From the sequence record NZ_CP016173.1: a stretch of DNA of 64,000 nt. One strand, given 5' to 3'. Position numbers and translations under genes: made by a program. The notes under the pieces were generated by a model. It did not search any database. It saw nothing but the letters and a program-made list of their open reading frames with translations, and was not told where the DNA came from. Positions 4,107-44,059 of this stretch are shown here, in pieces. The DNA comes from a plasmid. Every line of letters begins with the position of its first letter. Within the stretch, counting starts at the first letter, position 1.

Positions 4107-4387
4107 TAATGGCGTGAGCTGTGCGATTATAACGTGGTGGTATGAGTAGAAACCGCGTACGGAACAGTGTGACGACTGCGCGGGTACCGTGTGTCAAAAA
4201 AGCTGAGTTTTGATGCCAGGGCGTTGTCTGTGCGTCGAGAATGTGTAATGATTCGGCTGGGCTCGGAGCCACGGCCTTGTATGGCTGTGCCAGCGAACGG
4301 ACGCAAGGCGTGTCGTACGGTCTTTTGCGTTCGGCGATAAACCTTAGAAAATTGACGTTATACGTTCTTGAGTGGAGCCATTACATG

Positions 4388-4870
4388 ATCTGGAAGATAA
4401 GGCGAGCGTGGGTCGTCCTGGCGGTATTCCTCGGCGGATGCTCCTCACTCCGGCCTGGTGACGACGTGACCCCCGACGTGTACGCAAATCGCCTAATGGC
4501 GGACAAGATGGCGGTGGCCGCGGATGCTCAGCGGCAGTACGCCGCCCTAGTGGCGGAAGGCAAAGCGAGGGTTGAGCGTAAGCAAGAGATGCTGGAACTG
4601 GACCTCATCAACGTCGATTACATCGGCTTGCCCCAGGAGCTGCTCCAGACTCTCGCGTACCGGTACGGTTATCGGTACGTCGAGGTGGGGCAGCCCACCC
4701 AACTTCGCGCTATCAACATAAAGATGACGAGCGTGACCCCGACGGATGTGCTGCGTTCTATCGGGCAGCAGATTGACCGGCAAGCCGACGTGGTGCTGAG
4801 CATGCCGGCAAGGACTATCCGGCTCACCTACAAAACCCCGGTGCCAGCAGGCGGCAAAAAGAGGGGATAG
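4388..4870 (+). CDS. DotD/TraH-like T4BSS lipoprotein
   Basis: Start chosen at the internal Met giving MIWKIRRAWVVLAVFLGGCSS (signal peptide plus LGGC lipobox), about 160 aa. Sits directly upstream of DotC-like and DotB-like genes as in the dotDCB / R64 traHIJ arrangement. RBS GAGTGGAG lies upstream. Confidence 0.45.
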   Translation: MWKIRRAWVVLAVFLGGCSSLRPGDDVTPDVYANRLMADKMAVAADAQRQYAALVAEGKARVERKQEMLELDLINVDYIGLPQELLQTLAYRYGYRYVEVGQPTQLRAINIKMTSVTPTDVLRSIGQQIDRQADVVLSMPARTIRLTYKTPVPAGGKKRG

Positions 4871-4873
4871 GCC

Positions 4874-5821
4874 ATGCCGATGGATATGCCGCCCATGAGC
4901 CTGGAGCAGGCCCAGCGGCTCTATGAGGGGTCTGCTTACGTCGAAGTGGTGGATCAGTCTCGTGGTGGCAGCGCGGCGACCGCTGCCGCGCTCATGGCGC
5001 AGCAGAACGATGCCCAACGCGCACGGTCGCAGGCGCTTCTGGATACCGCGTTGGGCATCGGTGTCAAGGCCGGCATTGCCTGGCAACTGGACAAGATCCG
5101 ACGTGACGTGAAGGCCAACGAGCGAAAGCTGGACACGATCTACGACTTCGGCAATTTGATGATTCAGGGCCGGGTGGTGCCGCCCGTGATCGTGCAGGCG
5201 ACTGATCTTTATAACCAGGACGGCGATCTTACGCTTCGACTTTCTGGGGCCTATTACAAAATCGAGTCCCAGGCAAAGTTCGCTTCCGTAGCACCGTCTT
5301 GGCGTGGTTACCTGTCATTCCCGACTGCGGGGACGTTGCCCTCATCTTTCAACATGATCAAGCCCGCGACTTCGGCGGAAAAGAGTCTGTGGGAGCAAGG
5401 GGTCGCTGATGGTTGGCGTCAAGGAATAGAGCAGGCCGACATCATGCTGGAGCACTCGATGGACAGGCTCAATCGAGACTTCATAGGCATGCTTCGCTTC
5501 CACGAGTTTGTTCTGCAGGGGAAGATAACCATGCCGCTTATTGCGAGCGAGTCCATCCCTGTGACGAACAACGGCTCGACCATGGCGGTGGACGAGACGC
5601 TGTTGCGCATTACGGCGCTATCGGAGTTCGACGGCGATATGAAGAAATGGACGGGTCTCACGCCTTCGGCAGCGCCGAACAGCGATGTTCGCACACCGTG
5701 GATCACATCGGCGCCCCGTGCGGCGGCGCCGGCGCCTAGCAGCGCCACGGCCCAGACCTTTCCCGTAGTAGGGCAGGGGAGTTCAGTCCCGAGCGGGGTG
5801 GTGGATGGACACGACAATTGA
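4874..5821 (+). CDS. DotC/TraI-like T4BSS protein
   Basis: 315 aa, encoded between the DotD-like and DotB-like genes. The call rests mainly on conserved gene order plus size. No obvious N-terminal signal peptide was seen, so it is tentative. Confidence 0.4.
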   Translation: MPMDMPPMSLEQAQRLYEGSAYVEVVDQSRGGSAATAAALMAQQNDAQRARSQALLDTALGIGVKAGIAWQLDKIRRDVKANERKLDTIYDFGNLMIQGRVVPPVIVQATDLYNQDGDLTLRLSGAYYKIESQAKFASVAPSWRGYLSFPTAGTLPSSFNMIKPATSAEKSLWEQGVADGWRQGIEQADIMLEHSMDRLNRDFIGMLRFHEFVLQGKITMPLIASESIPVTNNGSTMAVDETLLRITALSEFDGDMKKWTGLTPSAAPNSDVRTPWITSAPRAAAPAPSSATAQTFPVVGQGSSVPSGVVDGHDN

Positions 5822-7004
5822 CAATGGCGGCGAACCTGGAGCGCTCCTGGAGCGGCTGGAGTGGAGGACCGCATATCGAGATCCGTTCAGGTTCCAAACC
5901 TCGGAGGACTTCAAGGCTCTGATGCTGGAGACCCTTGCGCAGGGGGCCAGCGATATCCTGATTCAGCCCGGATATCCGGTTTGTGCCGAAGTGAACGGAG
6001 GCCTCCGGGCTGTCAGTCACCGCGCGCTCGATGATAGCGAAGTGCGCGAAATCCTCGTCCTGTGCGCAAACCGCGATACAGCGTGGACCGATATCGTCGG
6101 TGGAACGGCAGTCAACACTCGGTATGAGGTCTTTGATCCAAAGCTACGTGATTTCCGGGGCGACAAGGTGCGGCACAAGTATCGCGTCAATGCGTCGCCG
6201 ATTGCATACCACGGGCAGACATCATGCCAAATAGTGATGCGAGCCATTGCGAAAGATCCTCCGGTTTATACGGAACTGGGGCTGACGGAAGACATTGTTC
6301 GCGCTGCATGTCCGGAGGACGGCATAGTGTACGTCGCTGGGCGTACTGGGTCTGGAAAGACGACCACCTTTGCATCGATTCTTCGCTTCATTCTTGAGAA
6401 TGACACGCCTATAAAAGGCAATCTAGTTACTCACGAAGAGCCGATTGAATTCACTTTTGAGTCGATCGCCAGCAAGCACTCGATAATTGTACAGTCCCAG
6501 ATCCCCACCCATTTTGCGGATTTTTACGCTGCCAACCGTGAGGCGATGCGGCGTAAGCCAGGCCTCATAATGATTGGCGAAATGAGGGATGAAGAGACAA
6601 TCCGTGCAGCGGTGGAAGCCTCACAGACCGGACATCCAGTATTCGGTACGGTGCACGCCACTAACGTCGCTTCTGTTGTGCGCAGGCTTATTTCCAGATT
6701 CCCTGAGGCTGAGCGCGCTACAGCGATCTACGACATTATCGAAAGCGCCCGCTTTATTATGGCGCAAACTCTAGTGCCGGGCGCAAATGGGCGTCGAGTT
6801 GCAGCGCGAGAGTGGTTGCAATGCGATCAGAGGGTTCGAGATGAGCTCATGGTCATGTCCGATATGGGGCGAGTGACGGGTACGCTCCGAGACATCATGC
6901 GGGCGCGGGGCTGGTCGTTCGTCCAGGAGGCCGACAGGTTGCTCGCAGATGGCGCCATCAGTGCCGCCACGGCGGCACAACTGCGTCAAAAAGCCGAGGC
7001 TTAG
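5805..7004 (+). CDS. DotB/TraJ-like secretion ATPase (PilT/VirB11 family)
   Basis: Walker A GRTGSGKTT; MIGEMRD (GE[IL]RD-type motif); His-box GHPVFGTVHATN. 399 aa. Overlaps the upstream gene, which suggests translational coupling. Confidence 0.8.
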   Translation: MDTTIDNGGEPGALLERLEWRTAYRDPFRFQTSEDFKALMLETLAQGASDILIQPGYPVCAEVNGGLRAVSHRALDDSEVREILVLCANRDTAWTDIVGGTAVNTRYEVFDPKLRDFRGDKVRHKYRVNASPIAYHGQTSCQIVMRAIAKDPPVYTELGLTEDIVRAACPEDGIVYVAGRTGSGKTTTFASILRFILENDTPIKGNLVTHEEPIEFTFESIASKHSIIVQSQIPTHFADFYAANREAMRRKPGLIMIGEMRDEETIRAAVEASQTGHPVFGTVHATNVASVVRRLISRFPEAERATAIYDIIESARFIMAQTLVPGANGRRVAAREWLQCDQRVRDELMVMSDMGRVTGTLRDIMRARGWSFVQEADRLLADGAISAATAAQLRQKAEA

Positions 7005-7454: not shown

Positions 7455-8462
7455 ATGGGCAAGGTAAGTGTTGTCGGCGTGGATGATGGCCACTACGCGA
7501 TCAAGGTGGTCCTGGAGAACGGGACGACTTTTTCTGTGCCGTCGCGCGGCCGCGCGGGGCGCCATATGATTTCCTGGCAAAGCGACGAGGCTGGCCTGTA
7601 CAAGACGGAAGAAGGTCATGATTTCACGGTGCACGAGCATCTTGAAGGCACCGACGACACGAGGTTTGCAGACTACCCGCGCTCGCCTCTGAATCGGGTG
7701 TTGGTCCATCACGCTTTGCGCAAAGCGGGCCTCTCTGGTAAAGATGTGTCCATCGCTACTGGGTTGCCGGTGTCCTATTACTACCTGGCCGATGGGCAGC
7801 GTAACGACGCACTGATCCACGCCAAGCAGGAGAATCTGCGCAAGAAGGTGAGCAGCGGTGGGCAGCCTATGGCGAACATCGTAAAGAACGTGGTGACCAC
7901 GGAAGCGATTGCTGCCTATTTCGATCAACTCATCGATATGGACGGTTCCCCTTCCGAACAGTTCGAGACTCTCAACGATTCCGTGGTCGGCGTCATCGAT
8001 ATCGGCGGAAAGACGACCGACTGCGCCGTGATCTTCCCCGGTGGACAGCAGGTGAATACGGAGCGTTCGGGTTCTAACGATGTTGGCGTTCTCAGTCTTT
8101 ACAGTGCTATCGAGTCGAGGCTGCGGTCGCAATTCGACTTGGACAACGTTCCCCCGCGAATAATCGAACATGCAATCAAGACGGGAACGGTCAAGCTTTC
8201 GGGACAGGTCGAGGACGTACGAGAGTTGTTGGTCCGCGAGAAGGAAAACCTGGCCGAACAGATTATGGCTGGTGTGCGTACCAAAATCGGCTCCGGGAAA
8301 GACTTGGATTCGGTTTTGTTTGTCGGCGGCGGCGCAATCGTGATGGAGGATCAGTTGAAGAAGTATTTCCCGCATCACCGTTTCGCCAAGCAGCCCGAGT
8401 TCGCGAATGCGCGTGGGATGTTCAAAATCGCCAAGTACGTTTTCGGCAACGAGGGTGAGTAA
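7455..8462 (+). CDS. ParM/StbA-like actin-type plasmid segregation ATPase
   Basis: Phosphate-1 motif VGVDDGHYAIKVV; phosphate-2 motif GVIDIGGKTTDCAVI; adenosine motif VLFVGGGA. 335 aa. Confidence 0.7.
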   Translation: MGKVSVVGVDDGHYAIKVVLENGTTFSVPSRGRAGRHMISWQSDEAGLYKTEEGHDFTVHEHLEGTDDTRFADYPRSPLNRVLVHHALRKAGLSGKDVSIATGLPVSYYYLADGQRNDALIHAKQENLRKKVSSGGQPMANIVKNVVTTEAIAAYFDQLIDMDGSPSEQFETLNDSVVGVIDIGGKTTDCAVIFPGGQQVNTERSGSNDVGVLSLYSAIESRLRSQFDLDNVPPRIIEHAIKTGTVKLSGQVEDVRELLVREKENLAEQIMAGVRTKIGSGKDLDSVLFVGGGAIVMEDQLKKYFPHHRFAKQPEFANARGMFKIAKYVFGNEGE

Positions 8463-9262: not shown

Positions 9263-9293
9263 AGGCCCTCAAGCGTGCTTGAGGGCCTTTTTT
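9263..9293 (+). terminator. Rho-independent terminator
   Basis: AGGCCCTCAAG-cgtg-CTTGAGGGCCT (perfect 11-bp stem) followed by TTTTTT. Lies between the 8633-9250 gene and the next gene. Confidence 0.7.
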
Positions 9294-9304
9294 GGATCTT
9301 GAGC

Positions 9305-10588
9305 ATGGCAACAAGCAAGTCCCAAGGGACAGACCGGACATTCCAATTCAGCGATCCAGCAGCCGTAGCCGGAATCATCGTTATGGTGATTGCCGCCGTA
9401 TGGATCGCATGGTATTTCGCACATACGCAAATCAGCGCGCTGTATGTATACGTGCGCTATGCAGAGGTGTGGGTTTTGAATTTGGCGGGCGCTTTTTTCA
9501 ATCTGCCCGGTATTTCGTCTGCTCACAATTGGGTGCAACGGGTATGTGCGCCCGAGAGAACTATTCTGCTATGTACGCGGGATTTTTCAACGCTTAGTTG
9601 GGGAGAAATCACTTCTTCATCCATGGTCTTTAATGGTCTATGCGTCATTATTCTCGGCGGTTGGTGTTTTCGCATGTTTCGCCAAGTGTCCCGCACCCAC
9701 CCCGGCTTTCGATTTACCAAGAATCACTCCATTAAGTCGTTCGTGAAAGAAAATGCCGCGCTGTACCCCCATCTAAAGCTTGTGGAGAGGCTAGACTTGG
9801 TAGCCAAGCCGCTTGCCGATCCGCTCTTTGGCATGAGCCTCACGTCTCGGCAATTTGCGTACAAACACCGCCTTATCAGCGGGTGGCAAAAAATGGCAGA
9901 TGGCCAGTATGTGCCCGTTTTGAACCGGGAGGCTGCTACGGCGGTATTTCTCGCGCAGCTCGGCCCTCATTGGACTCGTTCTGCGGATCTGACGCCTGGG
10001 GAGACGCTATTGCTCGCAATAGTCCTCCCACGGGTAGCTGCGACAGACCCCCGTATGGATGATGCGGCATTCAAGAATGCGATGGCCGATAGTGATGGTC
10101 TCATCAAGTGGTGTTGGGACCACTTCACGTCGTCGGTGGAGCGCCAGGGCAGAAAGCGGGAGAGCGGCGATGACGGCTATGCATGGTTGCGGCCTGCATT
10201 TGATCTGTCCTATCCCAGGCAAATAATCGCGCGCTATCTGATGCACCCGGAGGTAAAGCAGATCATCGAGCAGCATGCATTCCGCAGGACAATTCTGTAT
10301 GCGTGCTATGTCCGCGCAAGTGCCCTCGGCGTATTTCCGCCTGCGGACGTGCGATGGCTGCGGTTTTACGATCGGGAGCTCTGGTACCTACGCAGCAGCA
10401 TCGGCAGGCAGGTGGCTTTTGCGGAAGGCGGCTCGGCCGTCTATTGCCACTACCTATACGAAGCAAAAGCGGGCTGCGCCATCGTTGAGCCCCAGCTCGA
10501 CAAGGCCGTGAGCGGGCTGGAAGCTGCCATGCACGGGTTCCGCTACACCGAAGCCGACAAGAAGGCGTATGAGGAAGCCAGGGGATAA
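9305..10588 (+). CDS. Membrane protein, possibly DotM/IcmP/TrbA-like (tentative)
   Basis: Start moved to the ATG at 9305, downstream of the terminator; the ORF-track start at 9275 would include the terminator. N-terminal TM helices, about 427 aa, immediately upstream of the DsbC/TrbB-like gene as trbA precedes trbB in R64. Confidence 0.3.
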   Translation: MATSKSQGTDRTFQFSDPAAVAGIIVMVIAAVWIAWYFAHTQISALYVYVRYAEVWVLNLAGAFFNLPGISSAHNWVQRVCAPERTILLCTRDFSTLSWGEITSSSMVFNGLCVIILGGWCFRMFRQVSRTHPGFRFTKNHSIKSFVKENAALYPHLKLVERLDLVAKPLADPLFGMSLTSRQFAYKHRLISGWQKMADGQYVPVLNREAATAVFLAQLGPHWTRSADLTPGETLLLAIVLPRVAATDPRMDDAAFKNAMADSDGLIKWCWDHFTSSVERQGRKRESGDDGYAWLRPAFDLSYPRQIIARYLMHPEVKQIIEQHAFRRTILYACYVRASALGVFPPADVRWLRFYDRELWYLRSSIGRQVAFAEGGSAVYCHYLYEAKAGCAIVEPQLDKAVSGLEAAMHGFRYTEADKKAYEEARG

Positions 10589-10669: not shown

Positions 10670-11518
10670 GTGAACATCGGAAAGTTGCTGGTTGCGACGG
10701 CTATTGCCGTGCTTCCCGCTGCGCAAAGCGTCGCCCAGTCCCCCGAGGCCGTCATTTCCCGCTATGGAAAGATCGTCCGCAAGCTCGATCCTGGCGTCGG
10801 CGGTTTGACGGCGTGGCAAGTAGAGAAAAACGGCAAGCAGATTACCCTATATACGACGCCCCCGGCGCCGAATATGGCGGTCATCGCAGGTGTGGTATGG
10901 GATGCGCAATCGGGACGAAACATCTCCGATATGCAGTTACCCGTGCTCACGCATGAATCGACGGGATCCACGCCACCCGCGATGGGTGTTGGAACTTCGC
11001 GCGCGTCGGCCATGTCCGGGAATTTTACGGGGGACATTCCCCAGGCCATGCATACGGTCGATTCTCTCCAGGGCGTCAAAGAAGGGCAGGGCGGCGTTGC
11101 GGACACGGTGTATGTCGTCATCGATCCACGGTGTCCCTATTGCCAACAGGCCTATGCAAAGACACGGCCATACGTCGCTAAGGGGTACTCCATTAAATGG
11201 ATCCCCACGACTGCTTTGGGCGACAAGGCCAACGGCACGCCGATCGCGGCGACGATTTTGCAATCAAGTGACCCTGCGGTGTTGGCCCGGATCCTCGGCA
11301 AGCATGAGCCCATCAAGTCAGAACCGACCCCTGAAACGATAAAGGCGCTTGATTTGAACCTGGCCTTCATGTTTGCGGCATTCGAGCAGAATCAGGAGCC
11401 AGGCCAGCAAGCGGGTGTGCCCGTAGCTTTCTATATCGACCATCGGACTGGGCGTCCCAAAATGATGACCGGCTTAACCGATGATGCCGTTCTGCAAGAT
11501 ATTTTCGGGAGTCTCTAG
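10670..11518 (+). CDS. Periplasmic thiol:disulfide interchange protein (DsbC/DsbG/TrbB-like)
   Basis: GTG start. Signal peptide MNIGKLLVATAIAVLPAAQSVAQS and the thioredoxin-fold active site DPRCPYCQ. 282 aa. Confidence 0.65.
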   Translation: MNIGKLLVATAIAVLPAAQSVAQSPEAVISRYGKIVRKLDPGVGGLTAWQVEKNGKQITLYTTPPAPNMAVIAGVVWDAQSGRNISDMQLPVLTHESTGSTPPAMGVGTSRASAMSGNFTGDIPQAMHTVDSLQGVKEGQGGVADTVYVVIDPRCPYCQQAYAKTRPYVAKGYSIKWIPTTALGDKANGTPIAATILQSSDPAVLARILGKHEPIKSEPTPETIKALDLNLAFMFAAFEQNQEPGQQAGVPVAFYIDHRTGRPKMMTGLTDDAVLQDIFGSL

Positions 11519-15258: not shown

Positions 15259-16107
15259 CTAGAGGGTTGGTCCGAGGTCTCCCAGACGATTATTGACCAA
15301 TGCGCGCGCGCGTTCCTTTACGCCTGGGCCTCCTGGCAGAAGCCCGATTGTGTTGGACCCGAGGACACTGAGCAAAATATCATTGCTGGCATAAGGGTTT
15401 TCTGTGAACAGGCTGGCAGTGGCAGGCGTTAGCGTGCTGCGGTCAAACACCCATCGTAGCTGTTCAAGATCCTTACAGACAGGAATTATAAAGGGGCCAT
15501 ACCCGTCTTCATACTGCTCAATCAGCGTATTGAAAACAAGCTGCTTGTCGGCCTCTAGCGCCTTTTCCTCGATCCTCATCCGGGGGCCGATATGCGACGC
15601 CACGGCTATGCGGACATCCCTGATGGGGTGTGACGCCAGGGGTAGCAGCGTCTGTGGATGGGTGGAAGGGTTTGCGGCTAATGCTCGCATTGCCTCCGTA
15701 TGATGGAACCCGTGTTCCAGAAGGGCATTTTGAAGCTCACGTGGAACGGTGGGCTGCCGCGCCGCTGCATGGGCAACGGCGCCTGATTCTCGCCCTTCCA
15801 TGAACAGCGCGACTTGTTCCGCACCGGACAGGCGGTTTGATTGGGCGAAGAAGAATTCGGTGGATATCCGCTCTGAGTCCTCGGAGAACTCTGCCAAACG
15901 GGCGCGGAAGGCCTGTTTTGTCGCGGAGGCAACCCCGCGTACGAGAGCACGCAAGCCAAGGGTATTGGCCTGGGCGGTGTGCGCGCCGGTCGGCAGGCTG
16001 ACGCCGGCATGCAGCGGCAGGCCGATGCGCTGCGCGATCGGCCCCCGGGCTTGCCTCTCGCTCAGGAAGTCCACCGCGCGCTGAAATTGTACGGTTCTGT
16101 CGGCCAT
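15259..16107 (-). CDS. Hypothetical protein
   Basis: 282-aa ORF with no recognised motifs. Confidence 0.45.
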   Translation of the reverse strand: MADRTVQFQRAVDFLSERQARGPIAQRIGLPLHAGVSLPTGAHTAQANTLGLRALVRGVASATKQAFRARLAEFSEDSERISTEFFFAQSNRLSGAEQVALFMEGRESGAVAHAAARQPTVPRELQNALLEHGFHHTEAMRALAANPSTHPQTLLPLASHPIRDVRIAVASHIGPRMRIEEKALEADKQLVFNTLIEQYEDGYGPFIIPVCKDLEQLRWVFDRSTLTPATASLFTENPYASNDILLSVLGSNTIGLLPGGPGVKERARALVNNRLGDLGPTL

Positions 16108-16118
16108 GGCAAGTCCGC

Positions 16119-16553
16119 CTAGGGTTTGGTCAGGAGCGTGGTGCCGGTCGCCTTCAAGACATGGCTCCGCACCTGCGGCCGGGACACGATGATCTCCGCG
16201 CCTCCTTCGCGGTAGCGAACCATATCGTTGCCGCTCACGCGCAGTTCGGCATCCAGGGCCGACCCGATTGCGGCGAGCGCGCGTGCAGACAAGCCAGGAA
16301 GCGCGGCATCGCTCGAAAGCGAAGCGGTGCGCTGCGCGCCCGTGTTTTCGAGGTCGTGGACGTATAGCACGTCCAAGTCGATGCCGGGAAAAAGGTCGGG
16401 TATCAAAAACGTCGAATTTGCATCCTCTGCCACGGTTGCCAGGGCCTCAAAGGCTTGTCGAAGCTCGCCTGTGTCTAAACATTCGAGCAACCCCGGATAG
16501 GCTTTGGTATGTACCCATTCGGCCGCTTTGTCAAAAATCTTATGTTCAATCAT
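16119..16553 (-). CDS. Hypothetical protein
   Basis: 144-aa ORF, first gene of the minus-strand operon. Divergent from the DotA-like gene across an AT-rich 77-bp region (16554-16630). Confidence 0.45.
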   Translation of the reverse strand: MIEHKIFDKAAEWVHTKAYPGLLECLDTGELRQAFEALATVAEDANSTFLIPDLFPGIDLDVLYVHDLENTGAQRTASLSSDAALPGLSARALAAIGSALDAELRVSGNDMVRYREGGAEIIVSRPQVRSHVLKATGTTLLTKP

Positions 16554-16630
16554 TCTAACTATCCGTCCAAATATCGGCTAATATTCTATGGATTCTATAT
16601 GTACCCTATCGCAAAGAAAAGGGGATAGTA

Positions 16631-19021
16631 ATGAGCATGCCATTCGCTCCGTGCACGGATGCAGCGTGTACGGACGACACCTCGGTAGAGATCCTCAAAT
16701 GGGTTTTCGGCCCCGTGATCAACGGTCTGTTGAACGGCGGAGACACTTCGAAAATTGAGACATCGGCCAATATCTTGGCGACGATGTTCAGCGTCTACGC
16801 CAGCGGAATCATGATCGTCGCCGGGTTCATCGTCAGTGGCGTGGTGATGGGCAGCGTCATGAATACGGCCAATGACGGAGAGGTCATGGGCAAAAACTGG
16901 TCAACGCCCAACACCATCATGCGGGTGGTCTCGGGCGGGGGAGTTCTGCTGCCTACGGCAAGTGGCTTTTCCATCATCCAGCTCATCGTGCTGATGCTTG
17001 CCCTTTGGGGGGTGGGCTTCGCAAACCTCACTTACCGGACTGGCATGACGATGGGGCTACTGAGCCCAGCCGGGATCGTAAGCAATGCGGCTGCGCCCGG
17101 TTCTTACTATGGCATGCGGGAATTCGCAAAACAGTACATGGGCGCAATGTATTGCGCCCGTGCTGCCAATGCCGCCTACACGATGGCCTCCGGATCACGA
17201 CCCTCGGTGCAATTGAACGGCGGCGCCGGCACGCCGATAGGTAGTCGCATGGAATACAGCTTCGCAATCAGCGACACCAACAGTGCGACCAACCTAGCCG
17301 GGGGAGCTCCCATTTGCGGAGTGGTGAAGCTTTCGCTGTATAGCGCTCAGAATCTCACGGACCCGACCGAGAAGGCGCTCGATTCCTTAAGGGTCGCGGT
17401 CCAGCAGCAGAAATACACCGAGGTCCAAAGCCTCATGGCGGACATCAAGTCCTTCGTGGACTCATGGCCCACATCAATCAACGCGGATGGATGGGACAGG
17501 GTTGATTCCTCTACCTTCAACGATATCGTCAAGCGACACGAGGACCGGATCGCTACTCAGCTCCTGAATAGCCTATCGCAACAGCAAGGCGCAATGGACA
17601 AAGGCATGGAGACGTATCTCAATGACACTTTGTCAAAAGGAGGATGGGCGTCGGCTGGGGGCTGGTTCCAGCGCGTCGGCATGGCTCGCGGCACCTTGGC
17701 GCAAATCTTCGCCGAATCAGTGGGGTCTGTTTCGGCTCCGACGACGAGCGGATTGCCGCAAAGCGAGCAAACCAGGGAATTTGCGAGCAGCGTCAACACC
17801 ATCCCTTATATCGTGCAAGCCAAAGCAGATGGAAAGCTGCCCGACGATGCCAAACGGAATTTGACCGCCGAGAGTTTGAACGGTCTTCTACCAAAAGACA
17901 TCGATGATTCCATCAATATTTCCACCGTGCAGCAGAACATGGCTTCGGCGGTGTCACGTTGGACAAACGGGATGATGGAAGCCATTGTTGGGATGGCAAC
18001 AGGAGCAGGGAATGATGGAAAAGCCAGCGCGATTTTTCCATGCGGCTCTGCAGGTGAAATTGGTGGCTCCATCAATCGCATGAAATGCGTTGGGGACTAT
18101 CTGACCCTGCAATATGTCGCGGTCCTCGGCACGGACGCGTTTCTCAAAACATCAGCGACAGGAGCCCGAATAGCTGCGGGCGTAGTCAGTGGCGGCAAGT
18201 TCCTGGGCACAGGTCTTGAAGTTGACAAGGTGGTCACCCCCTTCTGGGATTGGATGATGGCCGTTCCGATCCGCTGGCTGAGCACCATAGGCACCTATCT
18301 ACAAACCCTCGCATTCTATTTTGGCGTGATCATTCCCACGTTTCCTTACACGGTTTTCATGATCGTGGTGGTGGGTTGGATCCTTGCGGTCTTGCAAACG
18401 TGTGTGGCTGCACCCCTATGGGCAGTTATGCACATGACGCCCGATCGGACCTTCATTGGATCGCAAACCCAAGGCTATTTGATGCTACTTGCCCTGTTTG
18501 TTCGGCCTGCATTGGCGGTGCTGGGGCTTTTCGCGTCAATGCTGATCTCCGACCCCATCATCACCTATATCGCCAAAGCATTCTTCACCATGCACAGAGA
18601 CGTGGCCAGCTCTACTGGCGCGATCGGCTCTGTGGCTTCAATAGTGACGTTCTTTTGGTGGCTGATCGTGTTTGGCTTGACCCTTATGCCCGTGCTGTGG
18701 ATGACTTATGGGTTGCCCCAAGCTCTCCCAGACGAGGTGCTCCGCTGGATAAGCGCCGGCATTGGCGACCTGGGCGCAAGCGCCGCAATCCCCGAGGTGC
18801 GTGGCGGGCACCAGAACGCGCAACGTATGGTTGACCAGCTTTCCAACGGCCCCCGAACGACCAGAATCGGCGGACCTGAGCGTCCGCGCGGCGGAACGCC
18901 TCCAAATGGCGGGCCAGGCGGTGGCAGGGGAGGGGGTAGTGGGCGCAATGAAACTCTGCTGAGCGTCAACCAGCAGGGCGTGACACCAAGCCCCACCAAT
19001 TCACCCGGATCCACGTCCTAG
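16631..19021 (+). CDS. DotA/TraY-like polytopic inner-membrane T4BSS protein (tentative)
   Basis: 796 aa with multiple TM helices in both N- and C-terminal thirds, a large central soluble region and a Gly/Pro-rich C-terminal tail. Size and topology resemble R64 TraY / DotA. RBS AAAAGGGGA upstream. Confidence 0.45.
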   Translation: MSMPFAPCTDAACTDDTSVEILKWVFGPVINGLLNGGDTSKIETSANILATMFSVYASGIMIVAGFIVSGVVMGSVMNTANDGEVMGKNWSTPNTIMRVVSGGGVLLPTASGFSIIQLIVLMLALWGVGFANLTYRTGMTMGLLSPAGIVSNAAAPGSYYGMREFAKQYMGAMYCARAANAAYTMASGSRPSVQLNGGAGTPIGSRMEYSFAISDTNSATNLAGGAPICGVVKLSLYSAQNLTDPTEKALDSLRVAVQQQKYTEVQSLMADIKSFVDSWPTSINADGWDRVDSSTFNDIVKRHEDRIATQLLNSLSQQQGAMDKGMETYLNDTLSKGGWASAGGWFQRVGMARGTLAQIFAESVGSVSAPTTSGLPQSEQTREFASSVNTIPYIVQAKADGKLPDDAKRNLTAESLNGLLPKDIDDSINISTVQQNMASAVSRWTNGMMEAIVGMATGAGNDGKASAIFPCGSAGEIGGSINRMKCVGDYLTLQYVAVLGTDAFLKTSATGARIAAGVVSGGKFLGTGLEVDKVVTPFWDWMMAVPIRWLSTIGTYLQTLAFYFGVIIPTFPYTVFMIVVVGWILAVLQTCVAAPLWAVMHMTPDRTFIGSQTQGYLMLLALFVRPALAVLGLFASMLISDPIITYIAKAFFTMHRDVASSTGAIGSVASIVTFFWWLIVFGLTLMPVLWMTYGLPQALPDEVLRWISAGIGDLGASAAIPEVRGGHQNAQRMVDQLSNGPRTTRIGGPERPRGGTPPNGGPGGGRGGGSGRNETLLSVNQQGVTPSPTNSPGSTS

Positions 19022-19046
19022 TCCAAGAAATGTCGGTGGAACCATC

Positions 19047-19724
19047 ATGACACTACTTCCGGCGTTGCAACCTATCGTTTATGGGCTGACTTCCGAAGTC
19101 CTGGCATACGAAGCTCTTGCCCGTTGGCGCCGCGACGGCAAGATTTTAGGCCCGACGGATCTTCCTGAAGCTCCGCAATGGAGCGGAGTGGACATTGACA
19201 TGCTGTCGGCCATTCTCGACCGCGCAGAAACGGTGTCGGGTATCGCACCGAGGTTATTTATCAATGTCAGTGCGAGCACGATTTCCGAGCCAGGCCGCTT
19301 GGCTACGTGGATCTCGCACCTGGCGAAGATCACAAGCTACGCCACGTTCGCCGTCGTGATCGAAATAACAGAAGGAATTGGCGACGACAAACTGCAAGAG
19401 GCATGGCCTCAGCTCAAGCGCCTTGGTGTCAAGCTGGCTTTGGACGATTTCGGTGATGGGCGGTCATCCAGGGCACGGCTTGTCCGCTATGACTGGGACT
19501 ACTGCAAGTTCGAGGGTCACACTGTACGGGACCACCGCATCCAGGAAGCCATTAGGTATTGCCAGAACAGCGGCATTCTGCCCATCGTGGAGCGGGTGGA
19601 ACATCAGAAAAGCAGCGAAGAGTTCGCGGATATGGGACTGCATTGGCAGCAAGGCTTCCTACACGGGCGTCCCGTGCTTGTCGATAACCTCGCCGAGAGG
19701 ACTGGCAATGTCGTTATCGCATGA
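19047..19724 (+). CDS. Stand-alone EAL-domain c-di-GMP phosphodiesterase
   Basis: EALARW (EAL..R), NVS, VIEITE, LALDDFGDGRSS (DDFG.G.SS), DYCKFEG (catalytic-region Lys), ERVE and GLHWQQGFLHGRP motifs all present. 225 aa. Starts 25 nt after the DotA-like stop, with RBS GGTGGA. Confidence 0.75.
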   Translation: MTLLPALQPIVYGLTSEVLAYEALARWRRDGKILGPTDLPEAPQWSGVDIDMLSAILDRAETVSGIAPRLFINVSASTISEPGRLATWISHLAKITSYATFAVVIEITEGIGDDKLQEAWPQLKRLGVKLALDDFGDGRSSRARLVRYDWDYCKFEGHTVRDHRIQEAIRYCQNSGILPIVERVEHQKSSEEFADMGLHWQQGFLHGRPVLVDNLAERTGNVVIA

Positions 19725-19888
19725 GCGATGCAAAGTCGCCGCTGCCATCGCGCTTTTGCAGAACGCAACCGTACCCGGATGACCATGAATAGCCATCCAC
19801 GCAAGCCGCCGTAAGGCCTCCCAAAAAGTAAATCATCCAGTCCACGAGACGCCTATCTCCCGCCAAGCCATGGCGGGTAGGGATTCTT

Positions 19889-22594
19889 TTGCCCAAAAGG
19901 TTTGAACCTATGCCGACATCTCGCAATCAACAGGAAGGGTTTGCACGTCGAGCTCGCCGTATACGAAGCGTGAGCGCCCTAGTACTTCTCGCGTTCGCAG
20001 TCCAAGGCTGCACCGCGCCGCTGACGGGCACCCGCCTCCAGGCTGCTCCCCCAAGTGCAGCGCTCCCGGGGCAGCCTTCCTCGGCGGCAGATCCCCTTGG
20101 CAACGTCATGCCGCATCGTGTGCTTCCCCAAGAGACATCTCCCAATCAGGCGATGTCGGAGGCGAGCGCCCGAAGACAGTCTCAACAGGGAGGGGCGATT
20201 AATCTGGAAGGACAGACGATCGATATGGCTGGAAGTGGCCGCTCTGGCGCGGCCCAGTCATTCGTATCGGGCTTGGCCGTATCTGGGGCTCAGAAGGCCA
20301 TGCAAGACTGGCTGAATCAGTTCGGCACGGCACGCCTGGGGCTGGATGCGGGGTCTTTTCACGGTGGAAGCCTCGACATGTTATTTCCGCTGTACGACGC
20401 CAAGAAATCGTCGCTGATTTTCAGCCAGGTGGGGGTGCGCCGTAACGATCGGTTCACGGACAGCTACCGAACCACCGTCAATGTGGGCCTTGGGTATCGC
20501 CATTTCTTCGACAAGGTGATGTTGGGGGCCAACGCCTTCTACGATGCGGACGTGACGCGAGGGAATCGGCGGTATGGCCTGGGCGCGGAGGTGTGGGCCG
20601 ACTACCTCAAGCTCAATGCCAACGGGTACTTCCGCACGAGCGGCTGGAAGAAGTCGCCTGACATGGACAACATGCTGGAGCGACCGGCTAACGGCTTTGA
20701 CCTCCGCGCTGAAGGCTATCTGCCGCAATTACCTCAGGTGGGTGCCAAGCTCATCTACGAGAAATACTATGGGCACGATGTCGGGCTTTTTGGATCACAT
20801 GATCGCCAAGAAAACCCCTCAGCCTGGACAGTCGGGCTGACGTACACCCCGGTGCCGGCGATGACCTTCGGTATCGAGCAGCGCATGGGGCAAGGCGGTC
20901 GTAATGAGACGGCCTTAACTATTGGCATGCGGTATGCGATCGGTGTGCCGCTGAACAAGCAGTTTGCGTTCAATGAAAATGCGGTGGCGGCGAGCCGCAA
21001 GCTGAAGAATATGCGCCAGGATCTGGTTGAGCGCAACAATGACATCGTGCTGGAATATCGGCAGGATCGCATCATCGGCGTACAGCTGCCAGGCACTGCG
21101 AGCGGTATTGAAGGATCGCAGCTTACGTTTCCAGTGAATTTGGTAGCCAACAAAGGTACGCCACAAGTTCTGTGGTCGGGCTCAGCCGCAGGTTTTGCGT
21201 TGCCTTACGGTGGATCGGGTAGCGGAATCCTGACGCTGCCGGCATACAACCCGAACGGCAATAACACATACCAGCTCGTGGCAACGGCGGCCGAAGGGAC
21301 ATACAAAGTTCAATCCAATGCGATGACCATCACGGTGAACGCGGCGCCCGTGGCCGCTTTGCGCGTTATGCTGGAGCGCAGCAAAGCCGTCGCATCGGCC
21401 GATGGCACCGACGCGGTGACATTCACGGCCACCGTGAAAGACAGTAAAGAGCAGCCAGTGGCCGATACCGCGGTTGCCTGGAAAGTGACCAAGGGAACTG
21501 CATCGTTCAAGTCCTTGGCACGAACGACGAATCGTAATGGCCAGGCTGCGGCCGTCGTGACGAGTTTGAAAGCGGACGACGTTGCCGTGCAAGTCACGCT
21601 CGCGGATGGTACAGCGGCCCAAAGTGACACACGCTTTTCGGTCGATACGGCAAGCGCTGCGGTCATTCAGTTGGACGGCGCCCCGTCCACGCCTCAAGTT
21701 GCAAACAGCACCGACGTGTTGACGCTTAAGGCCACCATCAAGGACAAATCCGGCAGTAATGTCGGCGCGGGCATCGTCGTGCATTGGCATGCTGACCGGG
21801 GTGTACTAAGTGCGGCCTCGTCTCTGACAGATGACAACGGGGTGGCAGTGGTCAATTTCACCGCGCCCTCTACTGTCGGCGATGTGCATGTGACGGCAAC
21901 CGGCGCGGCGGGCGATCCCGGCAAGATGGCGACAATTACGTATGTAGCGGACCTGGCAACCGCCACGGTGGCGCAGTTAGATGGCGCACCAGCTGGCAGT
22001 CAGCCTGCTAATGGATCGGATGTCGTGACGCTGCAGGCCACGGTCAAAGACAGGAACGGCAACCCCGTAGGGCCTGGCGTTGCCGTGAGCTGGAGTACCG
22101 ACATTGGCACGTTGAGCGCCGGAACCTCTTCCACCGATGGCGACGGGAAGGCTCAAACGCGGCTGAAGGCGCCGTTGTCTGCAGGTACTGCCCACGTGAC
22201 GGCAAAAGCCGCAGCGAGCGATGCAGGCAAGACGTTAGCGATTGAATATGTGCTGGATTTAAATTCCGCACGCGCTGAGATTACTGACGTTTCGGAAAAT
22301 TGGGACCAGGGCGACTTCAGCAGCCGGTACTGGGACATCACGGTCAAAGCATGGGATGTCTCAGGAGACGTGAAAGCGCCGGGCGCGACAGTCACCTTCT
22401 CGTCCACCAGCGAGGGTAACTTCATGACGCCTGTTACTGTAATCGCAAGTGGATCGGGCAAGGCAAGTGCACTATTCCGAATCCCTTCGGGCGATCTAGC
22501 ATGCGGGGACTCAAGGTCTGCCACCCTTACAGTCAAGGCGTCGGCCAGCGATCCGGGCGTTACCAGGGTTCTTACGGCATTCGGTGACTGCTGA
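19889..22594 (+). CDS. Invasin/intimin-family inverse autotransporter adhesin with tandem bacterial Ig-like (Big_1-type) domains
   Basis: N-terminal signal peptide, then an intimin/invasin beta-barrel-like region (…VNVGLGYRHFFD…, GLTYTPVPAMTFGIEQRMG). At least four roughly 95-aa repeats of pattern DGxDAVTFTATVKD…G.PV…V.W…G follow. 901 aa; the true start may be the internal Met (MPTSRNQQ). Confidence 0.7.
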   Translation: MPKRFEPMPTSRNQQEGFARRARRIRSVSALVLLAFAVQGCTAPLTGTRLQAAPPSAALPGQPSSAADPLGNVMPHRVLPQETSPNQAMSEASARRQSQQGGAINLEGQTIDMAGSGRSGAAQSFVSGLAVSGAQKAMQDWLNQFGTARLGLDAGSFHGGSLDMLFPLYDAKKSSLIFSQVGVRRNDRFTDSYRTTVNVGLGYRHFFDKVMLGANAFYDADVTRGNRRYGLGAEVWADYLKLNANGYFRTSGWKKSPDMDNMLERPANGFDLRAEGYLPQLPQVGAKLIYEKYYGHDVGLFGSHDRQENPSAWTVGLTYTPVPAMTFGIEQRMGQGGRNETALTIGMRYAIGVPLNKQFAFNENAVAASRKLKNMRQDLVERNNDIVLEYRQDRIIGVQLPGTASGIEGSQLTFPVNLVANKGTPQVLWSGSAAGFALPYGGSGSGILTLPAYNPNGNNTYQLVATAAEGTYKVQSNAMTITVNAAPVAALRVMLERSKAVASADGTDAVTFTATVKDSKEQPVADTAVAWKVTKGTASFKSLARTTNRNGQAAAVVTSLKADDVAVQVTLADGTAAQSDTRFSVDTASAAVIQLDGAPSTPQVANSTDVLTLKATIKDKSGSNVGAGIVVHWHADRGVLSAASSLTDDNGVAVVNFTAPSTVGDVHVTATGAAGDPGKMATITYVADLATATVAQLDGAPAGSQPANGSDVVTLQATVKDRNGNPVGPGVAVSWSTDIGTLSAGTSSTDGDGKAQTRLKAPLSAGTAHVTAKAAASDAGKTLAIEYVLDLNSARAEITDVSENWDQGDFSSRYWDITVKAWDVSGDVKAPGATVTFSSTSEGNFMTPVTVIASGSGKASALFRIPSGDLACGDSRSATLTVKASASDPGVTRVLTAFGDC

Positions 22595-22609
22595 GTTCGC
22601 CCCGGTTTA

Positions 22610-22633
22610 TAGGCCGGTCCTGGGACCGGCCTA
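22610..22633. terminator. Perfect palindrome (hairpin) between convergent genes, possible terminator
   Basis: TAGGCCGGTCC-tgg-GACCGGCCTA with no flanking T-run. Confidence 0.35.
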
Positions 22634-22768
22634 CGCGCCTTGTTTGCGAGGGGATCGAAAATGCACCAGGTGCACCAGACCAATTTCTGAAGGTGCGGGG
22701 CGGCAGCGGCTATGCCGCGCCACATCACAGCGGTGGAGTGCTTCCGGCAAAGATAGGGCGTTCGCCCA

Positions 22769-23542
22769 CTACATGCCAGCCGACAAGCTCTCCGTCTTGT
22801 CTTCCTGGGCCATGACCAGCAGATCGGCGATAAATTGCCTTGTCTTAGGCAAATATCGGTCGAAGGTGGGGTCGAGATCAGGCGCCATCTTGATGGTGCC
22901 TTGTTGGAGGCCCTTATCCACCTCACGGGCATACTTTTCCGCGAACAGCTCCCTGGCATGTTGTGCCTGGGGCGTGTTTTCGCGCGTCAATTCCTCTAGG
23001 ACGCCTCCGACGGCCGAGACGAAGACCATGGTGCGGTTGTATTGCCAGAGCTGATCTGCGTACTGCTGGGTGCGCTCCCTATAGCTGGCATCTAGTTCTT
23101 TCACCTGCTGTTGCAGCTTCTCGTTCGCGCTCCGAAGCGAGATGATGAGCTCCCGCAGGCTGGTATCGGCTTTGCGAAGCAAGCCGTTCTCTTGGCGTAG
23201 CCGCTGATTCTCCTCTTCCATTGCGGCAACTCGCGCTTCCAGGGCGTCGATTATCTTGGCTTGCTTGTCCAGCTCTGCCTTCAGGCGCTCTTTGTCGGCG
23301 ACATGCTGTGCAGTGAAGGCGAGCTGCTGACGCAACCGATCATTCGCTTCCCGGACTGCCTCGTCCCACCCCTCTTGACGACCTTGAGCATACGCTTGGT
23401 CTGCTGCCACAGTCGCCTCCTCAGCCAGCCTGCGCAGCTCCATGGCATGGCCCGCATCAGATGCCAAGGCATGCTGATAGGATCCGATATAGGACGTATT
23501 GCTGCGATTGCCGCCGCCTGCCGGGATGCCGTTGTTGATCAT
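22769..23542 (-). CDS. Hypothetical coiled-coil protein
   Basis: 257-aa ORF. The central region is strongly heptad-like and rich in E, R, Q, L and A. Confidence 0.4.
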   Translation of the reverse strand: MINNGIPAGGGNRSNTSYIGSYQHALASDAGHAMELRRLAEEATVAADQAYAQGRQEGWDEAVREANDRLRQQLAFTAQHVADKERLKAELDKQAKIIDALEARVAAMEEENQRLRQENGLLRKADTSLRELIISLRSANEKLQQQVKELDASYRERTQQYADQLWQYNRTMVFVSAVGGVLEELTRENTPQAQHARELFAEKYAREVDKGLQQGTIKMAPDLDPTFDRYLPKTRQFIADLLVMAQEDKTESLSAGM

Positions 23543-24982: not shown

Positions 24983-25276
24983 CTACTTCGCCAAGGTCCG
25001 GGGAGGGTACTCTTGTCGGGCGTGCAGCACCGATAGGACTTCGACGTAATCGGCCTGGACGCGATAGATGACGATGTAGTTGGGGTGCGCCACGATCTCC
25101 CGCGTGCCCGGCACCCGGCCGCGTTTGAAGATGTACGGGTGGTCCGCAACGGGATGCACGGCGCTTTCAATCAGCTCATGGATGGTGATGGCGGCATACA
25201 CATCGAACTCTGCGATGTGGTCCGTGATGCGATCCAAATCATCGAGCGCGGGCGCACTCCAGAAGATGGGAAGCAT
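24983..25276 (-). CDS. RelE/ParE-family type II toxin
   Basis: 97 aa. C-terminal IVIYRVQADYVEVLSVLHARQEY is typical of RelE/ParE. Preceded by a small antitoxin-like ORF. Confidence 0.7.
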   Translation of the reverse strand: MLPIFWSAPALDDLDRITDHIAEFDVYAAITIHELIESAVHPVADHPYIFKRGRVPGTREIVAHPNYIVIYRVQADYVEVLSVLHARQEYPPRTLAK

Positions 25277-25308
25277 GACCTATCGGGCTACCCGGCGGGC
25301 AGGTAAAG

Positions 25309-25521
25309 TCATGCCTGCGAAGGCGCTATGGGATTGCTTTCCGCATCTGCCAGCTTCGCGGCAAGTTTTTGACGAATCAGCGCCATAGCCTCGTCGTGCG
25401 GGATGCTGGGCCGAGGGTCGTCAAGACTGGCTTGCACCTTCGCACGGAACCAGCGGTCATAGCTATCCGCTTGTTCTTGCGTCTCGAACTCAGAGACTAT
25501 CGGGGAGAGGGCAGTGCTCAT
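25309..25521 (-). CDS. Putative antitoxin partner of the RelE/ParE toxin
   Basis: ORF 25309-25593; the probable start is the internal Met (MSTALSPIV), about 70 aa. Small and charged, 32 nt upstream of the toxin gene. Confidence 0.5.
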   Translation of the reverse strand: MSTALSPIVSEFETQEQADSYDRWFRAKVQASLDDPRPSIPHDEAMALIRQKLAAKLADAESNPIAPSQA

Positions 25522-25619: not shown

Positions 25620-26750
25620 TCAGGGCAGGGCGCCAAGGTTGGCTTGCAGGTCGGCCAATTTCTGGGCATCTTCCTGGCGCTTGCGGTCAATCGTCTTGGC
25701 GTAGATCCGTGTCGTGCGCGGGTCGGCATGCCCTAGCTCGTCTTGGGTCGTTTCAAGCGAGGCTCCCGCTGCCAGGCGGTGGGTGGCATTGGTATGTCGC
25801 ATCCAATGCGTGGTCATTCGCATGACTTGGCTGCGGATGTGCTCATCCGGACAGTCGCCTGCGGCCGATTTTGCCAATTCGTGCACGATCAAGCCGATGG
25901 AGCGAGGCGTCAAGGCCCGCGAACGGGCTCCCACGTTGATTGTCGCCACGAGTGGGATGTTCTCGCCAGGCAGCGGGAAATCTGCCAGGCCCCAGCTTTT
26001 TCGGTAGCGCATGAGCTCCTGCAGCAAGCTGGAATTCACGGCCACCATGCGCTCTTTTTGCCCTTTGCCAATGACGCGCAACAGCCAGCCGCTGTCCGTC
26101 CGTAAGAAATCTCCCATCACGCCGTTGGCCGCTTCTTCACGGCGCAGTCCGGCATGGTAGAGCAGGGCGAATAGCCATCTGGCGCGAGCGGCGACCGCGC
26201 GGTCGCGTGTGCTGCGCTCCGGCCGGTTGCACACCCAATCCCAAAGCCAAAACCAGCTATCGAGGTGCAGAGCTCGTTGCTGCCGCTCCGAACTGATAAC
26301 AGCAGGCTTCATCGACAGCTTGAACACGTTGAATTGCAGATAGCCCGCGTCCTGCAGGTATGAGCACATGCCGCCTAGAATCGTCCTGGTCTGGGCTATC
26401 GAGGCTGATGATAGCGGCGCCGCGAGCACCTGCGTTGGTGCTAGGACAACACCGCGCGGCGGCTTTCGAGGCCGGAGCCAATGAGCTGGAGGATTGGCCA
26501 GGTGGGCGTAGAACAGATGGGCGTGGTCCACCTTCATTTCCTTAAGCGACAGGCCGTTCTCGCCTAGCCACAGCAGTAGCCTGATGGCTTCACGGCGGTA
26601 CGCGTCAAAGGTGTTCGCGGTGCGACTGCCCTTGGCCCTGATCCAGACCGCAGCCGCCTGGGCATCTGTTTGGACGCCCAGGGCATCGCCAACCGCCTGA
26701 TCGGCACCAGGCGCAAGCAAGCGTCCGGGATCCAGTTCGGCCAAATTCAT
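25620..26750 (-). CDS. Tyrosine integrase / site-specific recombinase (XerC/XerD-like, int2)
   Basis: 376 aa. LRREE (box I Arg); HWMRHTNATHRLAAGASLETTQDELGHADPRTTRIYA (box II H..R..H, GH, catalytic Y). Confidence 0.8.
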   Translation of the reverse strand: MNLAELDPGRLLAPGADQAVGDALGVQTDAQAAAVWIRAKGSRTANTFDAYRREAIRLLLWLGENGLSLKEMKVDHAHLFYAHLANPPAHWLRPRKPPRGVVLAPTQVLAAPLSSASIAQTRTILGGMCSYLQDAGYLQFNVFKLSMKPAVISSERQQRALHLDSWFWLWDWVCNRPERSTRDRAVAARARWLFALLYHAGLRREEAANGVMGDFLRTDSGWLLRVIGKGQKERMVAVNSSLLQELMRYRKSWGLADFPLPGENIPLVATINVGARSRALTPRSIGLIVHELAKSAAGDCPDEHIRSQVMRMTTHWMRHTNATHRLAAGASLETTQDELGHADPRTTRIYAKTIDRKRQEDAQKLADLQANLGALP

Positions 26751-29718: not shown

Positions 29719-29975
29719 TGTGCATCTATCCCTTTGCGGCGCAGCGTGCGGACCACCTGCAGGGCCATGTTGCGAAAGCCGTTGTGCGCTACACGCCCTG
29801 GTGGGGCATCCCGTCCGCCGTGCGAGTGCGGTTCAACCCCTGGTTGTGCGTGTTCCATGATGAACCAGGTGGCCCGAAGCCGTTCGTAGCGTTCGGTGGA
29901 CGCGAAGGCATGGAGGCTGCCGTAGAGCACGTGATCGGACCCGCAATTTCCTCACGCCAGGAAGCCCCCCGATGA
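29718..29975 (+). CDS. Hypothetical protein
   Basis: ATG at 29718 overlapping the upstream stop (TGATG). 85 aa. Its stop overlaps the start of the 1120-aa ORF (ATGA at 29972). Confidence 0.4.
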   Translation: MCIYPFAAQRADHLQGHVAKAVVRYTPWWGIPSAVRVRFNPWLCVFHDEPGGPKPFVAFGGREGMEAAVEHVIGPAISSRQEAPR

Positions 29976-44049: not shown

Positions 44050-44059
44050 GCCGCGCCCC

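Follow-up and report, generated by a model that had tools for sequence, protein, structure and literature searches.

Why would a plasmid place a gene for a putative enzyme of cyclic di-GMP (c-di-GMP) degradation directly behind a gene for its transfer machinery? The question is raised by a 64,000-nt stretch of plasmid DNA (sequence record NZ_CP016173.1; the whole stretch is referred to here as the window), in which a gene for a protein with an EAL domain follows a gene of the dotA/traY family. An initial annotation, made from the sequence alone, had the EAL gene starting 25 nt after the stop codon of the dotA-like gene, and the coordinates were found to be exact:

16631..19021, + strand: dotA/traY, polytopic inner-membrane component of a type IVB (I-type) secretion/conjugation system (796 aa; TIGR04346)
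19022..19046, + strand: spacer between dotA and the EAL gene (25 nt), with a Shine-Dalgarno-like GGTGGA at 19035-19040, 6 nt before the ATG
19047..19724, + strand: stand-alone EAL-domain protein, predicted cytoplasmic c-di-GMP phosphodiesterase (225 aa; PF00563, AlphaFold2, Foldseek)

We think it fairly probable that the EAL protein is a cytoplasmic phosphodiesterase without a sensor, that its gene is co-transcribed with dotA/traY, and that its amount follows expression of the type IVB machinery.

A stand-alone EAL domain with an intact catalytic site

The 225-aa protein matched PF00563 with 106 bits (cut-off 31.3) over residues 3–209 of 225 and profile positions 13–236 of 236. As the initial annotation had stated, it consists of one EAL domain alone, without any further domain, sensor or GGDEF recognized by Pfam, and neither a signal peptide nor an input domain is present. 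An AlphaFold2 model, for which 37 homologs were used, reached a pLDDT of 95.7 and a pTM of 0.91. The best matches to this model found by Foldseek in the Protein Data Bank (PDB) were the EAL domains of YahA, MorA, TBD1265, PdeA, PA3825 and RocR, and every one of the top 50 PDB matches was an EAL domain (query-normalised TM-scores ~0.68–0.79).

All of the signature residues are present (E22-A-L-x-R26, N73, E106-x-x-E109, D133-D134-F-G, K154, E182-x-V-E185 and Q202). When the PDB sequences were searched with phmmer, the best alignment was to the active enzyme PA3825-EAL. The metal ligands of PA3825 are Glu39, Asn98, residue 130, Asp160, Asp161, Asp183 and Glu217 (PMC5301497), and these correspond, in order, to E22, N73, E106, D133, D134, E156 and E182 of the window protein. 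The sole change is the conservative replacement of Asp by Glu (E156) at the K-x-D position. In a MAFFT alignment that included E. coli PdeH, E. coli PdeL/YahA, PA3825 and a homolog from the plasmid pRA1, the residues kept were Q8, E22, L24, N73, E106, E109, D133, D134, G136, K154, E182, E185 and Q202. A degenerate EAL of the YdiV, FimX or LapD type was rejected, as neither the residue alignments nor conservation within the clade revealed a substituted catalytic position. The initial annotation had described the catalytic residues as intact, and this stands for all of the metal-binding and catalytic positions in alignment with PA3825, PdeL/YahA and PdeH; the longer DDFG.G.SS motif that it had included is not conserved in the clade beyond DDFG. 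With an intact two-metal site and neither a signal peptide nor an input domain, a phosphodiesterase controlled by dose is the most economical reading of the protein.

When 1.84 billion cluster representatives were searched exhaustively with HMMER, 47,815 EAL-like matches were returned. Only about 60–70 of these were short stand-alone proteins (~214–247 aa) that clearly outscored generic multidomain EALs. Among 60 representatives of this clade, E22, R26, N73, E106, D134 and K154 were found in every sequence, E109 and D133 in 59 and E182 and Q202 in 58. In loop 6, only D-D-[FY]-G and mostly S140 were kept in the same representatives, and the positions after DDFG varied freely. Across the 37 homologs, with identities down to 27%, the invariant columns were the catalytic ones together with W45, D49, W88, W150, C153 and C172.

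For the EAL orthologs linked to DotA, approximate dN/dS values of 0.07–0.09 were obtained where dS could be estimated, and those for DotA were in a similar range. The GC content of the EAL gene and its GC content at third codon positions (GC3) track those of dotA in each plasmid. To judge from the dN/dS values, the matching base composition and the conserved catalytic columns, the EAL gene is a long-standing, selected resident of these plasmids, and its pattern of constraint is that of an enzyme.

The clade also has near-invariant residues of its own, namely W45, D49, W150, C153 and C172, with C153 directly before the catalytic K154 and C172 in the helix that follows. For these residues and for a deletion after K154 that is described below, redox control, partner binding and specificity are candidate roles.

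The dotA-EAL tandem recurs in related plasmids

An identical EAL protein is recorded from Bordetella flabilis, on a contig of 118.7 kb that is probably a plasmid. Genome contigs were scanned with a profile built from a 14-sequence alignment. The dotA-EAL tandem was found in at least six other plasmid lineages, on contigs of 116–122 kb, with EALs 56–81% identical to that in the window. The identities were 79% in Achromobacter insolitus, 65% in Castellaniella, 64% in a Thauera metagenome-assembled genome, 56% in sequencing-run assemblies, and 81% and 71% in two metagenome contigs. As the tandem recurs in this many lineages, it is no chance juxtaposition. Each of these relatives has a divergent 144-aa gene before dotA, and in each the EAL gene begins 15–37 nt after dotA. 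On the other side of the tandem, the window contains the following:

19889..22594, + strand: inverse autotransporter, an adhesin of the intimin/invasin type (Pfam: IAT_beta 295 bits, three Big_1, Invasin_D3); gene callers place its start at about 19910
22769..23542, − strand: convergent coiled-coil gene, the ancestral neighbour on the right, at which the dotA-EAL unit ends (homologs in relatives)

Homologs of the coiled-coil gene directly follow the EAL gene in six related loci (L007, L008, L009, L015, L023 and L024). The inverse autotransporter is absent from this position in the Achromobacter, Castellaniella, Thauera and Logan plasmids and is present only in those of the B. flabilis type. 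Since the relatives have the coiled-coil gene directly after the EAL gene, the adhesin gene is, on gene order, a later lineage-specific insertion between the two.

In the nearest plasmids with DotA in PLSDB (P. syringae and Xanthomonas, DotA ~50% identical), there is no EAL gene between dotA and the coiled-coil gene. The two are directly adjacent in P. syringae and separated by one small open reading frame (ORF) in the Xanthomonas plasmid. This comparison indicates that the EAL gene was gained at the dotA/coiled-coil junction. The initial annotation had called the arrangement unusual for I-type systems, which agrees with the absence of the EAL gene from the closest DotA plasmids; it is however no one-off, and the remainder of the clade occurs in F-type operons resembling those of IncA/C plasmids.

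The wider clade is embedded in F-type transfer operons

The best matches in PLSDB were to an 'EAL domain-containing protein' of pRA1 (IncA) and of many related plasmids from enterobacteria and Aeromonas (40.8% identity, E 1e-43). In loci of the pRA1 type, the EAL gene lies between a gene of the TrbC/TraW type and traU, and its start and stop codons overlap those of its neighbours on both sides. A DsbC-TraC-S26-TraW/TrbC-EAL-TraU-TraN layout, complete as far as the contigs reach, was found in 24 loci from Aeromonas, Vibrio, Shewanella, Edwardsiella, Eoetvoesiella, Halomonas and metagenomes. When all loci encoding EALs at least 34% identical to that in the window were considered, 31 of 33 adjoined genes for a type IV secretion system (T4SS), either next to DotA or between TraW/TrbC and TraU. 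The two others were L011, which lies beside a RecD2-like helicase, and L035, on a contig too short to judge. Distant EALs (<30% identity) had no T4SS neighbours.

In a neighbour-joining tree, all 37 close homologs formed one clade (99 of 100 bootstraps), and the DotA-linked group (84 of 100) was nested among the sequences linked to TraW and TraU. This nesting suggests that the EAL gene passed from an F-type operon to an I-type plasmid; rooting and tree method were simple, and the direction is therefore tentative. On both phylogeny and gene context, the window protein belongs to a distinct compact EAL clade that is embedded in the transfer operons of two unrelated T4SS machineries.

Several further features of individual loci were recorded. 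In L011, a 14.5 kb contig, the EAL gene (6001-6657; 49% identical) follows the RecD2-like helicase gene and a gene for a 380-aa protein, and this may be a third mobile-element context. In the metagenome contig L037, the EAL linked to TraW and TraU is split into two frames (16-653), an apparent frameshift or pseudogene, which suggests that the gene is dispensable in some lineages. The IncA/C-like clusters with related EALs L012 and L014 encode a giant Ig-like/cadherin-like protein upstream of dsbC, and in L042 a large uncharacterised ORF takes its place.

A probable two-gene transcription unit

The initial annotation had also proposed that the EAL gene has its own ribosome-binding site, that no terminator separates it from dotA and that the two are co-transcribed as part of a conjugation operon. 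The regions relevant to these proposals, in addition to the spacer, are:

16554..16630, no strand: divergent intergenic region 5' of dotA (77 nt), from its conservation the probable promoter/operator and ribosome-binding site of the dotA-EAL unit
19725..19759, + strand: hairpin GCGATG(15 nt)CATCGC followed by GCTTTTGC, directly after the EAL stop codon (6-bp stem, read from the sequence and seen in the fold)

The GGTGGA before the ATG is a candidate ribosome-binding site, and the orthologous spacers of 15–37 nt likewise contain a purine-rich GATGGA, AGGGGA or CTGGAG. A consensus scan called no terminator-like or sigma-70-like site in 19022-19046, and the gap is too short to hold a terminator.

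The region 5' of dotA is strikingly different. Across five plasmids with saturated synonymous sites, 49 of 101 aligned columns were invariant, and the coding DNA on either side is far less conserved. The blocks of conservation are GGCTAATAT, ATTCTATATGTACCC and, before the ATG, AAAGGAAAGGGGA, a strong Shine-Dalgarno sequence. Although a simple sigma-70 consensus scan made no call in 16554-16630, this is probably a shared promoter/operator for an unnamed regulator. The 150 nt 5' of the EAL gene displayed only conservation of the coding type and a variable spacer, with no conserved promoter-like block. Strong conservation upstream of dotA and its absence upstream of the EAL gene fit a single promoter/operator region ahead of dotA that would serve both genes. 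The two are on the same strand, separated by a short spacer in which nothing was called, and their arrangement is conserved, as expected for a single unit. The gene layout thus favours the proposed co-transcription, namely the gaps of 15–37 nt, the Shine-Dalgarno-like sequences and the lack of a conserved promoter upstream of the EAL gene.

The term conjugation operon needs qualification. The EAL gene does form a unit with dotA, but this comprises only two genes. It is preceded by a gene block on the opposite strand, and in relatives a convergent gene directly follows it; the dotA-EAL pair is therefore a small unit of its own, outside any long tra operon. The hairpin at 19725-19759 is possibly a weak terminator. 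It was not called in the terminator scan, and the region 19715-19915 folds no better than shuffled sequences (z -0.46). In the Castellaniella ortholog (L008), a perfect 13-bp hairpin directly follows the EAL stop codon.

The history of the junction bears on another explanation, namely that the EAL gene is cargo that alters the lifestyle of the host (biofilm, motility or virulence), is unrelated to DNA transfer, and sits at a permissive insertion site after dotA, perhaps with its own promoter. The EAL gene is missing from the nearest DotA plasmids and so was gained at the dotA/coiled-coil junction, the same junction later took the adhesin gene in the B. flabilis lineage, and c-di-GMP enzymes are frequent cargo of mobile elements (PMC10333796). 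In the IncA/C-like loci, the EAL also diverges faster (41–72% identity) than TraU and TraC (82–98%). However, the clade is almost confined to T4SS clusters of two unrelated types, with overlapping codons in the pRA1-type loci, purifying selection has acted through a long divergence of the plasmids, and no conserved promoter-like element was found upstream of the EAL gene. We regard cargo of this kind as unlikely.

A proposed mechanism and its alternatives

If the EAL protein is a phosphodiesterase controlled by dose, a two-gene dotA-EAL transcript would start at the conserved region 16554-16630, and the level of the protein would be set by expression of the plasmid's type IVB transfer machinery. 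The enzyme would bind c-di-GMP and hydrolyse it to pGpG at a two-metal centre comprising E22, N73, E106, D133, D134 and E182, with K154 and Q202 assisting catalysis and E156 standing in for the aspartate of K-x-D. Having no input domain, it would be controlled by its amount, as in E. coli PdeH, with possible tuning by dimerisation via the atypical loop 6. Cells expressing the transfer genes would then experience a drop in c-di-GMP, either in the global pool or in one local to the T4SS. Lower c-di-GMP could shift the matrix, adhesion and motility outputs of the host or relieve an inhibition of secretion, in either case favouring transfer. The initial annotation had likewise suggested a fall in c-di-GMP that might promote motility and dispersal or modulate the assembly of the pilus and the T4SS. 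A link between c-di-GMP and type IV secretion has precedent, as c-di-GMP can depress the type IVA T4SS in Agrobacterium (PMC6771610) and, in Legionella, has an effect on when Dot/Icm translocation takes place (bioRxiv 10.1101/754762).

A number of points weigh against this mechanism. Loop 6 reads DDFGDGRSS where the canonical sequence is DDFG(T/A)GYSS (DFGDGRSS matches 6 of 8 positions of DFG(T/A)GYSS), and a degenerate loop 6 has been cited in a review as a cause of lost phosphodiesterase activity (PMC10333796). The Tyr position of the loop deviates in the active PA3825 and in PdeH too, according to the MAFFT alignment. Since the loop is unconserved beyond DDFG and is considered important for activity in the literature, constitutive high activity of the protein is not assured. 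The window EAL also lacks eight residues after K154, and in place of the usual FIPxAE it has a segment particular to the clade, with W45 and D49. Because of these two features, substrate preference or activity could differ from those of other EALs. The 3' end of dotA may contain an internal promoter. The dN/dS figures are rough because dS is near saturation. Finally, Salmonella with IncC plasmids carrying a putative phosphodiesterase had no apparent biofilm phenotype (PMC11721120), and this was the sole mention of the IncA/IncC EAL in the open literature searched, where a functional study was not found.

The variable loop 6, together with the association of a degenerate loop with lost activity (PMC10333796), would also suit a sensor or 'trigger' protein. 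Such a protein would bind c-di-GMP and metal with low or conditional turnover, contact a T4SS component or regulator, and be switched by dimerisation or by a partner. The invariant W45, D49, W150, C153 and C172, which are candidate surface residues, and the tight placement beside structural T4SS genes in two unrelated machineries also speak for such a role. However, the catalytic and metal-binding residues are essentially invariant over about 60 divergent representatives, which is expected of an enzyme and needless for a receptor; the inactive EAL of FimX lacks the metal-coordinating DDFGTG motif (PMC5301497). There is also no partner common to the two contexts, DotA in one and TraW/TraU in the other. 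A sensor role therefore appears improbable.

The W45...D49 motif in place of FIPxAE and the deletion after K154 could alternatively reflect a different substrate, such as 3'3'-cGAMP, c-di-AMP or another cyclic (oligo)nucleotide, in which case the protein might serve the plasmid in counter-defence or in interference with signalling. The PDB does contain a stand-alone EAL protein of Vibrio cholerae described as a 'versatile' cyclic-dinucleotide phosphodiesterase (6ifq). The catalytic architecture of the window protein is however canonical for EALs acting on c-di-GMP, with no sequence feature pointing to another specificity. The gene lies among structural genes expressed in the donor rather than in the leading region, and in a comparison with the PADLOC models, made with a link to anti-phage defence or anti-defence in mind, the protein matched none. 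We consider a different substrate very unlikely.

A T4SS-translocated effector was also considered, but the C-termini of the orthologs are highly variable in length and sequence and no conserved C-terminal signal is evident. Other c-di-GMP components were sought in the window, and no GGDEF, PilZ-like or plausible HD-GYP motif was found, nor any c-di-GMP riboswitch or other Rfam family. The DotB-like ATPase of the window has no MshEN-type N-domain in Pfam or NCBIfam.

Returning to the dose-controlled phosphodiesterase, a bolder version would make the minimal EAL clade a functional module of the conjugation machinery. The module would have moved from IncA/C-like F-type plasmids to type IVB plasmids and be expressed with the T4SS so that donors clear c-di-GMP globally or locally, with measurable changes in how efficiently transfer proceeds, in the behaviour of mating aggregates or biofilms, or in the assembly of the T4SS. 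We put this forward tentatively and hold it to be doubtful; if true, plasmids would widely manipulate a core second messenger of the host within their transfer programme.

Setting of the unit within the window

The 796-aa protein encoded upstream of the EAL gene matched the DotA/TraY family model TIGR04346 in NCBIfam with 376 bits (cut-off 100, E 3.8e-112) over profile positions 2–655 of 656. A Pfam scan did not recognize it, its only match being a sub-threshold one to OmpA_like. Annotated DotA/TraY proteins from plasmids of P. syringae, P. aeruginosa, Aeromonas and Xanthomonas are about 50% identical to it. The surrounding genes belong to a type IVB (I-type) system, and the following were recognized with Pfam or NCBIfam:

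803-1579, − strand: DotI/IcmL
4241-4870: DotD
4874-5821: TraI/DotC-like protein (PF16932)
5805-7004: DotB/TraJ-like ATPase
7455-8462: ParM
9275-10588: DotM
10670-11518: DsbG-like protein

Genes typical of plasmids are also present in the window, encoding ParM, a ParB-like methyltransferase, an ArdC-like protein, topoisomerase III, a toxin-antitoxin pair (ParE/PaaA2) and a tyrosine recombinase. No relaxase or DotL-type coupling protein was recognized in the 64 kb, which includes several large ORFs without a family match, and for this reason a conjugative role of the type IVB system is given only as likely. Three ORFs encoding proteins of 1120 aa (29972-33334), 564 aa (45989-47683) and 733 aa (49516-51717) had no Pfam or NCBIfam match, and the first and last of these had no PADLOC match either. 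If a relaxase or coupling protein is encoded within the window, it may be among these three. A megablast search of PLSDB with positions 16000-23000 found no close DNA match.

The ParE toxin and PaaA2 antitoxin genes (~24983-25521, − strand) lie beside the tyrosine recombinase gene (25620-26750, − strand), which is kept a few genes 3' of the EAL unit in related plasmids. The gene for the ArdC-like antirestriction protein/metallopeptidase (39517-41187, − strand) is followed by one for a complete topoisomerase III (41590-44175, − strand); a shorter ORF beyond it (44451-45980, − strand) matches only Toprim and part of a topoisomerase. Positions 60063-61559 (+ strand) encode a HerA/DndH-like ATPase that includes a DUF5710 segment, and a nearby ORF (62783-63952, + strand) has weak similarity to the C-terminal region of FtsH.

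Comparison with known systems

c-di-GMP governs the switch between motile and sessile states, and conjugation relies on contact between cells, on surface structures and on the matrix. The Agrobacterium and Legionella precedents use chromosomal enzymes; here a predicted degrading enzyme is encoded inside the transfer clusters of two unrelated machineries, one of which belongs to the IncA/IncC resistance plasmids, a group of clinical importance. Should the enzyme prove active and influence transfer, the plasmid would carry its own lever on host signalling, with possible relevance for how resistance spreads. Without such an effect, the gene would be another EAL gene among those already known from plasmids. 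An effect on transfer is easily testable by genetic means in IncC plasmids. That the EAL family is an ordinary one, that c-di-GMP enzymes occur on mobile elements and that the IncC gene is routinely annotated is already known. As far as could be determined, the DotA-linked form is undescribed in the open literature searched.

The EAL proteins of IncA (pRA1), IncC and F-type/MOBH plasmids are the closest outside the DotA-linked family (~40% identity, 218–244 aa). They share the clade signature (W45, D49, DWDYCKF and C172) and are likewise embedded in a conjugative transfer operon. They differ in that their neighbours are F-type pilus assembly genes and not a type IVB DotA/TraY gene, and in that the EAL gene is translationally overlapped on both sides in loci of the pRA1 type, whereas that in the window is the last of a two-gene unit.

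The lone EAL protein PdeH (YhjH) of E. coli and Salmonella also has no sensor, and its E, N, ExxE, DDFG, K, E and Q residues align with those of the window protein. The activity of PdeH is set by its transcription within the flagellar regulon, and the same logic is proposed here for the T4SS unit. PdeH is however only 19% identical, chromosomal and part of the flagellar regulon. Its loop is the canonical DDFGTG, in contrast to DDFGDGRSS in the window EAL, which also lacks 8 aa after the catalytic Lys and carries the clade-specific Trp and Cys residues.

The EALs of PA3825, PdeL/YahA, RocR, TBD1265 and MorA share the fold (Foldseek probability 1.00, TM 0.72–0.79) and the set of metal ligands. 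They are 19–27% identical, have sensor, regulatory or DNA-binding domains and a canonical loop 6, and none is located in a T4SS operon.

Other c-di-GMP genes of mobile elements include those for DgcK and DgcL of SXT/R391 integrative and conjugative elements (ICEs) and PvrR of PAPI-1, and urf2 of Tn21, which are thought to reprogramme host behaviour (PMC10333796). These are cyclases, response-regulator EALs or transposon cargo and lie outside mating-pair-formation operons, whereas the clade found here consists of a minimal EAL among the structural genes of the T4SS.

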